IMG/VR virus record: IMGVR_UViG_3300012948_000003
Coordinates: 40,445 to 104,444 of that record
Origin: a virus
Reading direction: 5' to 3' (one strand)
DNA length: 64,000 nucleotides
The first letter of the stretch is position 1. The number at the start of each line of letters is the position of its first letter. The notes beneath the pieces are model-generated. The model had not been told where the DNA came from and searched no databases. It worked only from the letters and a program-made list of their open reading frames with translations. Shown piece by piece: positions 1 through 59,661 of this stretch. The translations under genes were made by a program, and so were the position numbers.

Positions 1-826
1 CGGGCGCACCAGCAGCAGCCATTCGACGAAGCGTTCTGCTTATCGGTTGGGTTACACCACTCAGTGCTTGAACTGCTTGAAGCGCAGTCTGATATTCAGG
101 AGATGTTAAGAGCTTTCGAACATCAGGAGGGAGCTTTTGGAGGGAGGTAGGAATCTTAAAAGGTTTCTTCGGGGCAGTTATCGACGGCCATTGTATTCCG
201 GTGTTAGGATCAGTATCATATCGTACAGAGTAACCCCACTCCTGCTTGAGTTGATCGGCAACATTCGCTGCACCTTCGAGATCGCCTCGGGCTTTTAAGC
301 TCTCGAAGTTCTGCGCTACGAGTTCGTCGGGACGTGGTTTCCATGCTGGAGCAGGAGCTGCTGGCGGAGGTGCAACAGGCGGAGCCGCTGGCGGAGCAGC
401 GCCTTCATCCGGTAAGGCATCAGGGCTGATAGACCCCATTGCCGCGACATGTACATGATTAGAATGTTTACCTATAGCACCTACCGATTGACCGCCTCGC
501 CATCCACCAACAGGATCGTGATACAGTTCTGCCAGATTCGGACCGTAAGTATCCCGGAGATGCTCGGTGAATGCTCTCATCGACTCGGGCGCACCTGTAA
601 AGTCCCAGCCCTCACCAGCGACGTGCATCGAACCCGGTCTACCACCTACGGCGCGATTATGCGCAGGCGTACGCTTTGCCGACGAGAGAGTCAGACCATA
701 ACCCTGAGCTTCTCGCGTCAGCGTCTCTTGAGGATTAGCCCCGAGGTCTGCCCACTGCGGCAAGTCCTCTGGATTAATCGGCGCTAATGCCTGCGGGTTT
801 TGTTGGAATTGTGATGGGTCTTCCAT
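1..826 (-). CDS. Large virion/ejection protein (5' part; runs off window edge) with N-terminal M15-type (LAS) peptidoglycan peptidase domain
   Basis: Not in the ORF track. Hand translation from ATG at 826 stays open to base 1: MEDPSQFQQ...SSAKRTPAHNRAVGGRPGSMHVAGEGWDF...HSNHVHVA (H-x6-D...H-x-H Zn motif), then a Pro/Ala linker. Confidence 0.65.
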   Translation of the reverse strand, partial: MEDPSQFQQNPQALAPINPEDLPQWADLGANPQETLTREAQGYGLTLSSAKRTPAHNRAVGGRPGSMHVAGEGWDFTGAPESMRAFTEHLRDTYGPNLAELYHDPVGGWRGGQSVGAIGKHSNHVHVAAMGSISPDALPDEGAAPPAAPPVAPPPAAPAPAWKPRPDELVAQNFESLKARGDLEGAANVADQLKQEWGYSVRYDTDPNTGIQWPSITAPKKPFKIPTSLQKLPPDVRKLLTSPEYQTALQAVQALSGVTQPISRTLRRMAAAGAP

Positions 827-843
827 TTTCTTTTAAAAGAAAA

Positions 844-2514
844 TTATTGTTGAACTGGCACAGGCACGAGCTGTCCATTTGCTCCGGGCCTGAAGACCAC
901 TACAAGCGTCTTCCCCGTGTTAGGATCACGGTAGAGGTGAGGCTGTCCATCACCCGCATTCTGGCGCGTTGCTGGCGTTGGTTGAGCTGCGCCTTGAGGT
1001 GCGCCTTGCGCTCCGCCTTTCGGTGGAGTTGGTGCGGCTTTTTGTAATTCGTTTAATTTAGCGGCTCGATCCGCTTTCTGTCTCGCAATCTCGGCTTGAA
1101 TCCTCCCTTCTAACTCTTGCTCCTGCTGCTCCTTTGTCGGACCGCCAGTCTTCGATTTATCGCGGAATCCTAGCAGCGGAGGCTTCAAGTCTTTTCGATC
1201 TCGGACCTGTTTCTCAATCTTCGCATCGGAGTTCGCTTCATTAAAAGCCGCCACTCTATTCTGATGCGCTATCTGCGCGTCATGGTATCGTTGCTGCTCC
1301 GCAAGACTCGCCCCGGCACGTTGAGCCTTTCCTGCCTCAGCTGCCGCAGCGCGTTGTGTTTTTCCTGCTTCAACCGTTTTCTGAGCCGAGACAAGCGGTT
1401 TACCTTCATCGTCGGTTGCTAGTTCGCCCGATGTCACATCTCTAAAGTTGAAGTTTTCATCAACCTTAATAGCGCCGTTTATGAACTTCCGGCGAAGCCT
1501 ACCCGGAATACCTAATTGAGCTGCGGCATACTCCAGCTGTTCCGGAGTAGTTAGCATCCCGGCATTGTAGTCCGCTCTGATCGAATGCTTTCGATCTCTT
1601 TCATTCATCTGATCCCAGCGAGCGATCCTTGCTTTAGTCTGTTCTTCCGTTATATCGACCTTTCTCTCTGCGAGTCGCTGTTGCTGTTGCTTCAACAATT
1701 CGTAGTATTGCTGCTGTTCGGTCTTCGGAGTCATCAGACCTGTTATCGGATCGACTCCGGTCAGTTGTGCTATGTGCGCAGCGTTAGCAAGACGAGCATT
1801 TCTTATCTGCTGCTCCGCTGCTGCTGGTCCTGCGTGGTACTGAGCTTGCTGATTATACCAAGCTCTCGTGGTCATATTCGGATCGACAGCTCCGAGAATA
1901 GCGCCACCAATATTACCGAGCGCAAGACCCTTCAACGCTCCCATCAAGTGACCCTTAAAACCATGTACTGGTTCTGGCGTATGCGAGATCGCATCTAGAT
2001 AGCGCTGCGTTAACGGACCCACTCCGGTAGCCTGTCGGACAGCTGCAAGCTGAGCAAGAGTCTCTGGCGGTAACGGTGAACCCCACGGCGTAGTCTGCCT
2101 GCCCATTAGACCATACTGAAGACGTGCTCGCGCTAAATCGTTCTCGTCATGAATTCCATAAGCACCGTAATCAAGCGGTGCTGGAGGAGTTCCGATATCA
2201 GGCATGGGAACAGTAGTAGGCATACCAGTAGGAGCGCCACCGATATTCATAGCAGCAGGGAATGCTGGCAGAGCTGGAGGACCTGCTTCGCCCGATGCTG
2301 CTTTAGCTCGCATTCCTACTTCTTCAGGCGATAGGGCTCCGCTAGCCAGCGCAGCTTTAACCCCCATCCCCACTTCTGGCGCTGCTGGCGCTGGAGCTAT
2401 TGCTCGTTGATCGGGCTCTGGTTCTGGCGTATAGGTTGCCGCAAGGTCAGCGCCCGGCTCGTAGGCTTGCGCTAGCGCAGCCAGTGTGTATGGATTTAAG
2501 GTAGGAGGTGTCAT
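844..2514 (-). CDS. Putative internal virion/DNA ejection protein
   Basis: 556 aa, Ala/Gln/Pro-rich, GxxxG segment (GALKGLALGNIGGAILGA), coiled-coil; located after the tail genes. Confidence 0.5.
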   Translation of the reverse strand: MTPPTLNPYTLAALAQAYEPGADLAATYTPEPEPDQRAIAPAPAAPEVGMGVKAALASGALSPEEVGMRAKAASGEAGPPALPAFPAAMNIGGAPTGMPTTVPMPDIGTPPAPLDYGAYGIHDENDLARARLQYGLMGRQTTPWGSPLPPETLAQLAAVRQATGVGPLTQRYLDAISHTPEPVHGFKGHLMGALKGLALGNIGGAILGAVDPNMTTRAWYNQQAQYHAGPAAAEQQIRNARLANAAHIAQLTGVDPITGLMTPKTEQQQYYELLKQQQQRLAERKVDITEEQTKARIARWDQMNERDRKHSIRADYNAGMLTTPEQLEYAAAQLGIPGRLRRKFINGAIKVDENFNFRDVTSGELATDDEGKPLVSAQKTVEAGKTQRAAAAEAGKAQRAGASLAEQQRYHDAQIAHQNRVAAFNEANSDAKIEKQVRDRKDLKPPLLGFRDKSKTGGPTKEQQEQELEGRIQAEIARQKADRAAKLNELQKAAPTPPKGGAQGAPQGAAQPTPATRQNAGDGQPHLYRDPNTGKTLVVVFRPGANGQLVPVPVQQ

Positions 2515-2515
2515 C

Positions 2516-59209: not shown

Positions 59210-59237
59210 TTGCATTCTATAAACGATCTGGTAGAAT
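59210..59237 (+). promoter_or_regulatory. Rightward promoter TTGCAT-N16-TAGAAT (extended -10 TG)
   Basis: Read directly from the sequence; AT-rich upstream tract. Confidence 0.55.
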
Positions 59238-59584
59238 AGGTCCACGCTCGAAAGCGTAGCGGCGAACAAGGCAATGCGAGCCCTTCAAGCCGACCACATC
59301 TTGCCTCAGCCGGGCGATACATCCTGACAGAAACGCTAGGTCGGCGATAAGCCGAAGACAGCTAGGTGGATTCAAACGGTCGCGGGACGATTGGGCGCTG
59401 CGTGGTGCGCTAGCAGGTTGCCGATAGGGCATCCTGCCTCAGAAGCCTACCTACGATAACGAGATCAACGAATCCCCAGCTCGGATACTCCAAAGAACCG
59501 AAGAGACAAGCGCAGTGGCGCTGCGCAACATAAATCAAAGTCTGACATCTCAGAGTTCAAACCGTGAGTCCGACCGAAGCAAAT

Positions 59585-59623
59585 GCCCGAACTGGTTCTG
59601 CGGGTTCGATTCCCGCATCGGGC
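59585..59623 (+). ncRNA. tRNA-like minihelix (acceptor-like stem plus T-arm)
   Basis: GCCCGA...GCGGG-TTCGATT-CCCGC-A-TCGGGC. Confidence 0.55.
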
Positions 59624-59661
59624 TTAGACGAAAATTTTCTTTTAAAAGAAAGGAGACTTCA

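Follow-up and report, generated by a model that had tools for sequence, protein, structure and literature searches.

Here we describe a short palindrome that recurs throughout a 104,444-base-pair (bp) phage genome, IMG/VR record IMGVR_UViG_3300012948_000003 (hereafter G000), and in particular in a stretch of 64,000 nucleotides (nt) covering positions 40,445–104,444 of that record (the window, to which coordinates refer unless marked as genome coordinates). The feature is real and strongly non-random, and it is best read as a candidate genome-wide dyad operator: a site for a dimeric, probably phage-encoded DNA-binding protein that would act as a stoperator-like or KorB-like regulator of the whole genome, a reading to which we assign a probability of about 50%. 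The motif has a dyad architecture, is conserved in an all-or-none fashion and is enriched in two contexts, before start codons and upstream of promoters; in the relative IMGVR_UViG_3300020122_000089 (hereafter G006), the specificity of the site has switched symmetrically. From this pattern we infer that a protein binds the sites, what kind of protein it would be and that its effect would be repression or blocking rather than activation. A preliminary description, made from the letters of the window, had proposed operators or stoperator-like sites for a dimeric protein, genome-organising or packaging sites, or pause and loading sites for a phage NusG paralogue. Its interpretation is partly supported, the first proposal best, through a dyad of 14–20 bp, the symmetric change of centre, the enrichment upstream of −35 boxes and a copy between divergent promoters.

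The window holds 16 copies of the 14-bp core, TTCTTTTAAAAGAA, at the positions originally reported, against none in 100 dinucleotide-preserving shuffles. Seven of these copies are extended to the perfect 18-mer TTTTCTTTTAAAAGAAAA, and the intervals between copies range from 524 to 8172 bp; both the seven full 18-mers and a spacing of ~0.5–8 kilobases (kb) had been noted before. The whole genome carries 25 exact copies of the core and only a single one-mismatch variant, that is, conservation is all-or-none, and the sequences TTTTAAAA and CTTTTAAAAG are confined to motif copies in G000. While the core is a perfect 14-bp palindrome, a symmetric preference reaches position ±10 among the 50 pooled half-sites (A at −10 in 31/50, T at −9 in 34/50 and T at −8 in 46/50). 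The full site is thus ~20 bp long, ATTTTCTTTT joined directly to AAAAGAAAAT, and consists of two abutted half-sites of 7–10 bp with no spacer and an invariant centre. Between 68 and 72% of half-site occurrences lie within dyads.

Folding of the extended sites as RNA gave only −3.3 and −2.4 kcal/mol (−0.5 for the G006 core), and strong hairpins upstream of the motif (2/50 windows in G000 and 2/92 in G006) were no more frequent than in controls. Copies in G000 are spaced more evenly than random (coefficient of variation 0.56 versus 0.95, P = 0.002), and G006 shows no regular spacing. An assembly artefact was ruled out by unique flanks at every copy and by the independently assembled G006, in which another sequence behaves likewise. 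The 18-mer was not found as a repeat in other IMG/VR contigs, where 40 single, chance-like matches were obtained, with one copy in each of five large contigs checked. Separately, three unrelated phage contigs (Ga0206991_10011, IMGVR_UViG_3300031669_000042 and one more) carry their own non-palindromic repeats of 12–15 nt (CATGGGGAACCAGC five times, TATAGACGTAATTC five times and GAATGGGGGATC four times), some of which contain ATG and which may be start-associated or promoter motifs.

Genes were called as the longest open reading frames (ORFs) passing a dicodon-score filter for coding potential; in G000 nearly all lie on the minus strand, with small plus-strand islands. Relative to these filtered genes, 23 of the 25 copies mark the 5′ edge of a gene or fall within a promoter region, and the other two lie deep within genes, both outside the window. 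Copies are found at all three divergent junctions (3/3, five copies in total), at 14 tandem junctions and at no convergent junction (0/3). The link to start codons is strong: at 17/25 copies the ATG of an ORF of at least 45 amino acids (aa) follows within 25 nt (actual distances 1–19 nt; P about 8 × 10−6), compared to an expectation of 24–25% for random or intergenic-only positions, and all start codons linked to the motif are ATG. About one third of the copies are followed by a separate canonical AGGAG and ATG, so that at those copies the motif, which itself lacks GGAG, is not the ribosome-binding site.

The second context is the region just upstream of promoters. A scan for near-consensus promoters (TTGACA-16/18-TATAAT) identified six strong ones in G000, and at three of these (3/6) the motif precedes the −35 box by 5, 19 or 28 nt, compared to a mean of 0.18 promoter-linked sites under random intergenic placement (P < 1/3000). 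One copy (genome coordinate 21858) is located between two back-to-back divergent promoters, in DNA that is transcribed from neither. Oriented alignments of the motif flanks revealed no conserved −35 or −10 element.

Searches of IMG/VR with three baits (the terminase, a 335-aa protein and a 570-aa protein) returned G006 as the only true relative. This genome of 104,058 bp (49% GC; terminase 57% identical) shares ~48 genes with G000, largely in the same order. The phenomenon was compared in these two genomes; terminases 55–59% identical also occur on contigs of 98.8, 38.5 and 33.7 kb, which were left out of the motif comparison. The G000 motif has 0 copies in G006, with none above a reversed-pattern control. 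Using an unbiased k-mer count, we found that G006 has a palindrome of its own, CTTCCGGAAG, in 57 exact copies and ten with one mismatch; a longer form, TTCTTCCGGAAGAA, occurs 30 times, and the consensus is (A/T)ATTCTTCC joined directly to GGAAGAAT(A/T). This motif in turn has 0 copies in G000. The arms TTCTT/AAGAA are common to both phages, and the centre is TTAA in G000 and CCGG in G006. Each centre is self-complementary, which is the expectation for half-sites that abut in inverted orientation and are read by a dimer. Properties that depend on AT-richness are absent from the G006 motif and therefore cannot be the common function, which applies to a role as UP element, to melting, to U-tract termination, to a TTNTTT pause and to the TAA stop codon within the motif.

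Both placement rules hold in the relative. In G006, 30/57 copies have a gene-opening ATG no more than 25 nt away (P about 5 × 10−6), and the motif is found 0–45 nt upstream of the −35 box at 7/24 strong promoters (P < 1/3000), with a second copy 200–480 bp downstream at several of them. The leftward early promoter arrangement is kept (G006 coordinate 103227), with G006's own motif 19 nt upstream. Between the two phages, the kind of place is kept and not the exact position. As to the persistence of copies at orthologous positions, a point raised in the preliminary description, the G000 motif is absent from G006, and the palindrome of G006 occupies the same kinds of place. No repeated palindrome was found in more distant terminase relatives or in GC-rich contigs sharing the 335-aa gene. 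A 2.6-kb groundwater contig with a terminase 72% identical, the closest among the metagenome matches listed, has a single 16-bp palindrome, CATACGTTAACGTATG, at 2358–2373, downstream of the terminase gene, and is too short for repetition to be judged. The direct terminal repeat recorded for G006 in IMG/VR consists of 95 bp from a tandem array of 15-nt units (ACTTGCGCGGCTCGG, 17 or more of them), and since the assembly breaks inside this array, the repeat is no evidence for defined genome ends.

Individual copies in the window illustrate these contexts. Three fill the entire gap between neighbouring genes, as the preliminary description had it, with ORF coordinates leaving 17–18 nt from stop to ATG. 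The perfect 18-mer at 826–843 separates the stop of a 556-aa gene (844–2514, minus strand) from the ATG (824–826) of the 5243-aa polyvalent-protein gene. The perfect 18-mer at 6788–6805 separates the stop of ORF 6806–7150 (−) from the ATG of a 645-aa collagen-like tail-fibre gene (4851–6788, −) that has no Shine–Dalgarno sequence, and the copy at 28602–28619 separates the stop of a 982-aa gene (28619–31567, −) from the ATG of a 1022-aa gene (25534–28602, −). G006 also has a site directly after its orthologue of the 982-aa gene.

Two copies flank promoters, as claimed for positions 12582 and 59112, at 5 and 28 nt upstream of elements of the form TTGACA/TTGACT-17-TAnnAT. A divergent control region holds the copy at 12582–12599, which lies 5 nt ahead of the −35 box of a plus-strand sigma70-like promoter (TTGACA-17-TACTAT, 12603–12631; genome coordinate 53047) that heads a two-gene plus-strand island (12705–13387), and 4 nt upstream of the ATG of a 108-aa ORF (12253–12579, −). 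The leftward early promoter (sigma70-like, TTGACT-17-TATCAT, 59057–59085, −; genome coordinate 99529), which heads the leftward operon starting with the gene for an RfaH-like protein, has the copy at 59111–59128 upstream of its −35 box, at a distance of 28 nt.

Copies described as abutting starts are indeed next to ATGs by ORF coordinates. The copy at 41548–41565 adjoins the ATG of a 77-aa ORF (41315–41548, −) and is preceded on the minus strand by a 10-bp GC-rich, terminator-like hairpin; that at 50570–50587 holds the TAA stop of ORF 50577–50864 (−) and adjoins the ATG of a short (~40 aa) hydrophobic ORF; and that at 54962–54979 encodes C-terminal residues of a 75-aa ORF (54958–55185, −) and is 2 nt upstream of the ATG of a 79-aa ORF (54722–54961, −). 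Likewise, the copy at 16607–16624 encodes the terminal FLLKEK of a 343-aa gene (16594–17625, −) and is 11 nt upstream of the ATG of a 294-aa gene (15713–16597, −). Of the frames in which the motif had been said to be kept inside coding sequence, FLLKEK at 16607 and 54962 and the stop codon in the copy at 50570 stand. FSFKRK at 52559 does not: this perfect 18-mer (52559–52576), 19 nt upstream of the ATG of a 51-aa ORF (52386–52541, −), is intergenic because the plus-strand FSFKRK ORF fails the coding-potential filter. The broader claim, that selection acts at the nucleic-acid level, is upheld.

At four further copies a separate Shine–Dalgarno sequence follows. On the minus strand, the copy at 32842–32859 (core 32844–32857) is followed by AGGAGG-N5-ATG of a 146-aa ORF (32392–32832), and that at 45860–45877 by AGGAG-N4-ATG opening a 121-aa reading frame; the perfect 18-mer at 36342–36359 lies between the stop of a 616-aa tail-fibre gene (36360–38210, −) and AAGGAG-ATG of ORF 36088–36330 (−). 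On the plus strand, the copy at 59635–59652 precedes AGGAG-N6-ATG (59662) of a 64-aa ORF and comes after a tRNA-like 3′ fragment of T-arm and acceptor (GGTTCGATTCCCGCATCGGGCT, 59590–59634, +); ARAGORN found no tRNA in the window. The remaining copies stand further from starts: 24779–24796 adjoins the stop of ORF 24796–25113 (−), 92 nt upstream of the start (24688) of a 509-aa gene, and the perfect 18-mer at 57410–57427 lies ~10 nt past the stop of a 233-aa gene (57437–58138, −) and 117 nt upstream of a 685-aa SprB-repeat gene (55237–57294, −). In G006, one palindrome copy (G006 coordinate 30494) is in frame within the ORF of a 2887-aa polyvalent protein, and translation from an in-frame ATG 13 nt past it would yield a C-terminal product of 584 aa, so that an internal start or a fusion of two genes may be present here.

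We favour a DNA site read by a dimer because half-sites occur mostly in dyads, are invariant within a genome, are switched symmetrically between genomes and are enriched upstream of promoters. The sites would then form the genome-wide regulon of one symmetric dimer whose specificity co-evolved with them. Copies just upstream of strong sigma70-type −35 boxes may serve as operators, and where a second copy lies 200–500 bp away the pair could permit looping. Copies between cistrons of the long same-strand operons may act in stoperator fashion, as protein roadblocks or boundary marks for the elongating host RNA polymerase; there the motif would occupy the only non-coding space, and its A-rich arm could also supply the spacing ahead of the start codon. 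Activation is less favoured than a negative or boundary role, since near-consensus promoters would need no activator, the sites lie off the core promoter and other copies lie between cistrons.

Several observations weigh against a dyad operator. Eight of the 25 copies are tight against an ATG without a Shine–Dalgarno sequence, their terminal A being the A of the ATG or at most 4 nt away (1 nt in six and 2–4 nt in two); a role in DNA alone needs no such link, which the rival explanations below account for better. The abutment can be explained in part by the end of the extended site in ...AAAAT, so that a G alone completes a start codon, and also by the fact that only the intergenic gaps have room for 14–20 bp of invariant sequence. 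A simple repressor would usually overlap the core promoter, and the promoter-proximal copies do not; most sites do not occupy orthologous junctions when G000 and G006 are compared (counterparts at the starts of shared genes 1/5, at their ends 3/5, neither significant); and the symmetry argument rests on two genomes. Classical stoperators are linked to lysogeny, and Pfam and PHROGs scans of ~130 ORFs, which divergent proteins could escape, found no integrase, repressor or other sign of lysogeny. Further, six-frame searches of G000 and G006 gave no match to ParB_N (PF02195) at E ≤ 10, with control genomes matching; HTH_17 and RHH_1 domains were not found; and no repressor family appeared in the Pfam or PHROGs scans. 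The sole detectable helix-turn-helix protein resembles a small terminase.

G000 is rated complete by CheckV and has a GC content of 51.8%. It has no cultured relative (the top terminase match is Thermus phage phiFa, 29% identical), and a search of genome contigs found no prophage relatives. Pfam and PHROGs scans recognised the large and small terminase subunits, collagen-like tail fibres and the 5243-aa polyvalent protein, together with replication and recombination genes (DnaB, sliding clamp, RecA, Erf, exonuclease, RusA, HNH nucleases and Dam), and the phage also encodes a NusG paralogue. Readers of the Cro/CI, MerR/Xis and ribbon-helix-helix types were considered and rejected: HTH_3 matches only the small-terminase-like protein, and HTH_17 and RHH_1 match nothing. 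Nor did ten small conserved ORFs, or ten ORFs next to the early promoters, yield a DNA-binding family. The small-terminase-like protein (222 aa, 50866–51534, −) is a weak candidate for the reader. Its N-terminal part cannot be aligned with that of the G006 orthologue, and the C-terminal 70 residues are 40% identical. We know of no terminase subunit that reads dozens of sites.

The window also contains TIGR-type arrays (42150–43270 and 58109–58318, both −) with units of 36 nt and two 9-nt spacers each, and a loose pattern detects 44 units genome-wide. Targeting of the palindrome by a TIGR-Tas system was rejected, as the 88 spacers in these 44 units have no match of ≥7/9 to a 9-mer of the extended motif, and BLAST comparisons with G006 turned up no Tas homologue.

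The main alternative, which we regard as tentative and rather unlikely, takes the motif for an ops-like site of loading or pausing that serves an RfaH-like NusG paralogue and is read on the non-template strand or in nascent RNA at cistron boundaries. A factor loaded there would render the polymerase resistant to termination over the 60-kb leftward block, and its KOW domain would bring ribosomes to starts that lack a Shine–Dalgarno sequence. RfaH itself loads at ops and supports translation of genes without Shine–Dalgarno sequences. Both phages encode a protein with NGN and KOW domains whose top solved-structure match is RfaH (198 aa in G000, 58280–58876, −, matched over residues 10–175), and PF02357 scores above the family cut-off in both. 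In both phages its gene belongs to the leftward early operon, whose strong promoter has the motif just upstream, and the two paralogues are only 27% identical, against 50–70% for most of the proteins in common, a divergence that would be expected of a factor changing along with the motif. Placement also fits, with 17/25 and 30/57 sites 1–25 nt before a gene ATG, and many genes after the motif have no Shine–Dalgarno sequence. Because strong sigma70-like promoters are few in G000 (six genome-wide and none between 12,603 and 59,085 of the window), long read-through would be needed.

If the signal were read on one strand, a dyad would be unnecessary, but the copies are perfectly palindromic and the half-sites mostly paired. 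The enrichment upstream of −35 boxes places sites outside the transcript of that promoter, one copy is between divergent promoters, and the hairpin is very weak. Moreover, ops-type sites are normally asymmetric, lie in the transcribed leader and occur usually once per operon, whereas the motif is a dyad present 25–57 times and often upstream of promoters. For NusG-dependent pausing or loading, as proposed in the preliminary description, the RfaH-like protein in both phages speaks in favour. The TTNTTT argument does not hold, the TTCTTT of G000 being replaced in G006 by TTCTTCC with a GC centre, so that TTNTTT is missing from the G006 motif.

The two ideas can be combined in a model that we consider doubtful, in which a palindrome-bound protein stops or pauses the host polymerase at cistron starts and insulates promoters, and the RfaH-like factor lets the polymerase and its coupled ribosome pass. 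The reader in this case would have an unrecognised fold or would be the small-terminase-like helix-turn-helix protein, repurposed and co-evolved with the TTAA or CCGG centre. To our knowledge, such a two-component stop-and-go transcription system has not been described for any phage.

Similarly doubtful is a DNA site unrelated to expression, whether for recognition by the small terminase during packaging, for compaction or organisation of the genome, for bidirectional Chi-like protection or as a linker in modular recombination. This would suit a phage that encodes RecA, Erf, exonuclease and RusA, whose sites in G000 are more evenly spaced than random and whose only helix-turn-helix protein is small-terminase-like, with an N-terminal part diverged beyond alignment. 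On the genome-organising or packaging role put forward in the preliminary description, the evidence speaks neither for nor against: spacing is more even than random in G000 and not in G006, no ParB protein was found, and the sole detectable helix-turn-helix protein is of small-terminase type. The recombination-linker idea meets a lack of enrichment at mosaic boundaries, placement by promoters and start codons is predicted by none of these roles, and packaging would require many sites per genome, for which we know of no precedent.

We consider it improbable that the motif acts as a start-associated signal in RNA, a pyrimidine tract and then a purine tract before the AUG that would provide special ribosome binding or translational control, possibly bound by a phage protein. 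The start link is significant in both phages, intergenic-only controls included; the linked starts are all ATG; the purine arm (AAGAA or GGAAGAA) is at Shine–Dalgarno distance; and the Start-Associated Sequences of Cluster K mycobacteriophages offer a precedent (PMC3203893). Such a function, however, requires neither a palindrome nor an invariant pyrimidine half, and it leaves the copies upstream of and between promoters unexplained. In addition, about a third of the copies have a separate AGGAG after them, two copies lie deep in genes and the hairpin energy is negligible.

Lastly, it is very improbable that the motif is itself a phage-specific promoter whose mRNAs would have little or no leader, or a T-tract terminator working in both directions, although its copy number and spacing resemble those of phage promoter sets and a terminator hairpin directly before the motif at genome coordinate 1290 and window position 41548 leaves the downstream gene no room for another promoter: three Pfam group scans of ~130 ORFs, and PHROGs scans of two of these groups and the largest proteins, turned up neither an RNA polymerase nor a sigma factor of the phage, a −10-like element at a usable distance is missing, with the ATG as near as 1 nt, upstream hairpins are not enriched (2/50 and 2/92), that of the motif reaches only −0.5 to −3.3 kcal/mol, no copy marks a convergent junction in G000, and with a GC centre and no T-tract in G006 neither melting nor U-tract termination is conserved.

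Among known systems, the closest published case is the dyad repeat of Cluster O mycobacteriophages, a 17-bp sequence with invariant arms that is present more than 30 times (TGTTCGG-N3-CCGAACA, 34 copies in Corndog; PMC4351075). Its authors predict a dimeric DNA-binding protein and report no close link of the repeats to promoters or to translation starts (PMC4351075). Like G000 and G006, these phages have dozens of genome-wide copies with invariant inverted arms, mostly in small intergenic gaps, and no lysogeny genes. They also resemble G000 in having methyltransferase and glycosyltransferase genes within the structural module; in G000 this cluster (FkbM-type methyltransferase and GT1 and GT2 glycosyltransferases) spans 13368–21490 (−). 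The Cluster O repeat has a variable 3-bp spacer, whereas the G000 motif has no spacer and an invariant centre. Further differences are that the sites of G000 and G006 are linked to starts and promoters, that the lineage is unrelated and that a relative with a changed centre exists.

The stoperators of Cluster A, bound by repressors of the L5 gp71 type, are asymmetric, oriented with transcription, read by a monomer and found in temperate phages (PMC9283540, PMC6550527). They share with G000 the many near-identical sites in tiny gaps between co-oriented genes, together with sites at early promoters, and with both phages the divergence of site and reader specificities among relatives; the G000 motif differs in being a perfect palindrome in a phage with no detected repressor or integrase. 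The Cluster K Start-Associated Sequences are asymmetric 13-mers with an AGGAG core, in one orientation and before non-structural genes only (PMC3203893). As in G000, a repeated motif lies a few nt before the ATG and sometimes holds the upstream stop codon, but the G000 motif is palindromic, has no Shine–Dalgarno core, serves all gene classes and also occurs upstream of promoters. KorB, a global regulator of the ParB family in the IncP plasmid RK2, reads OB operators, 13-bp palindromes dispersed over a replicon of ~60 kb, some directly ahead of −35 boxes and others distant from promoters. G000 and G006 have similarly dispersed palindromes, some directly upstream of −35 boxes, and differ in their higher copy number, their start-codon association and the lack of a detected ParB_N protein.

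Genome-wide invariant palindromes have been known in phages since the description of Cluster O in 2015. What is new here is a natural swap of specificity, two positional rules and a system without a detectable ParB-type protein. The natural switch makes the reader findable: the TTAA/CCGG swap provides a handle on it, as a protein shared by the two phages with differing DNA-contacting residues. Through the two positional rules, the sites are connected with the boundaries of expression units and not with packaging or recombination. Should the RfaH-like factor take part, the system would show how a phage runs 60-kb operons on the host polymerase.

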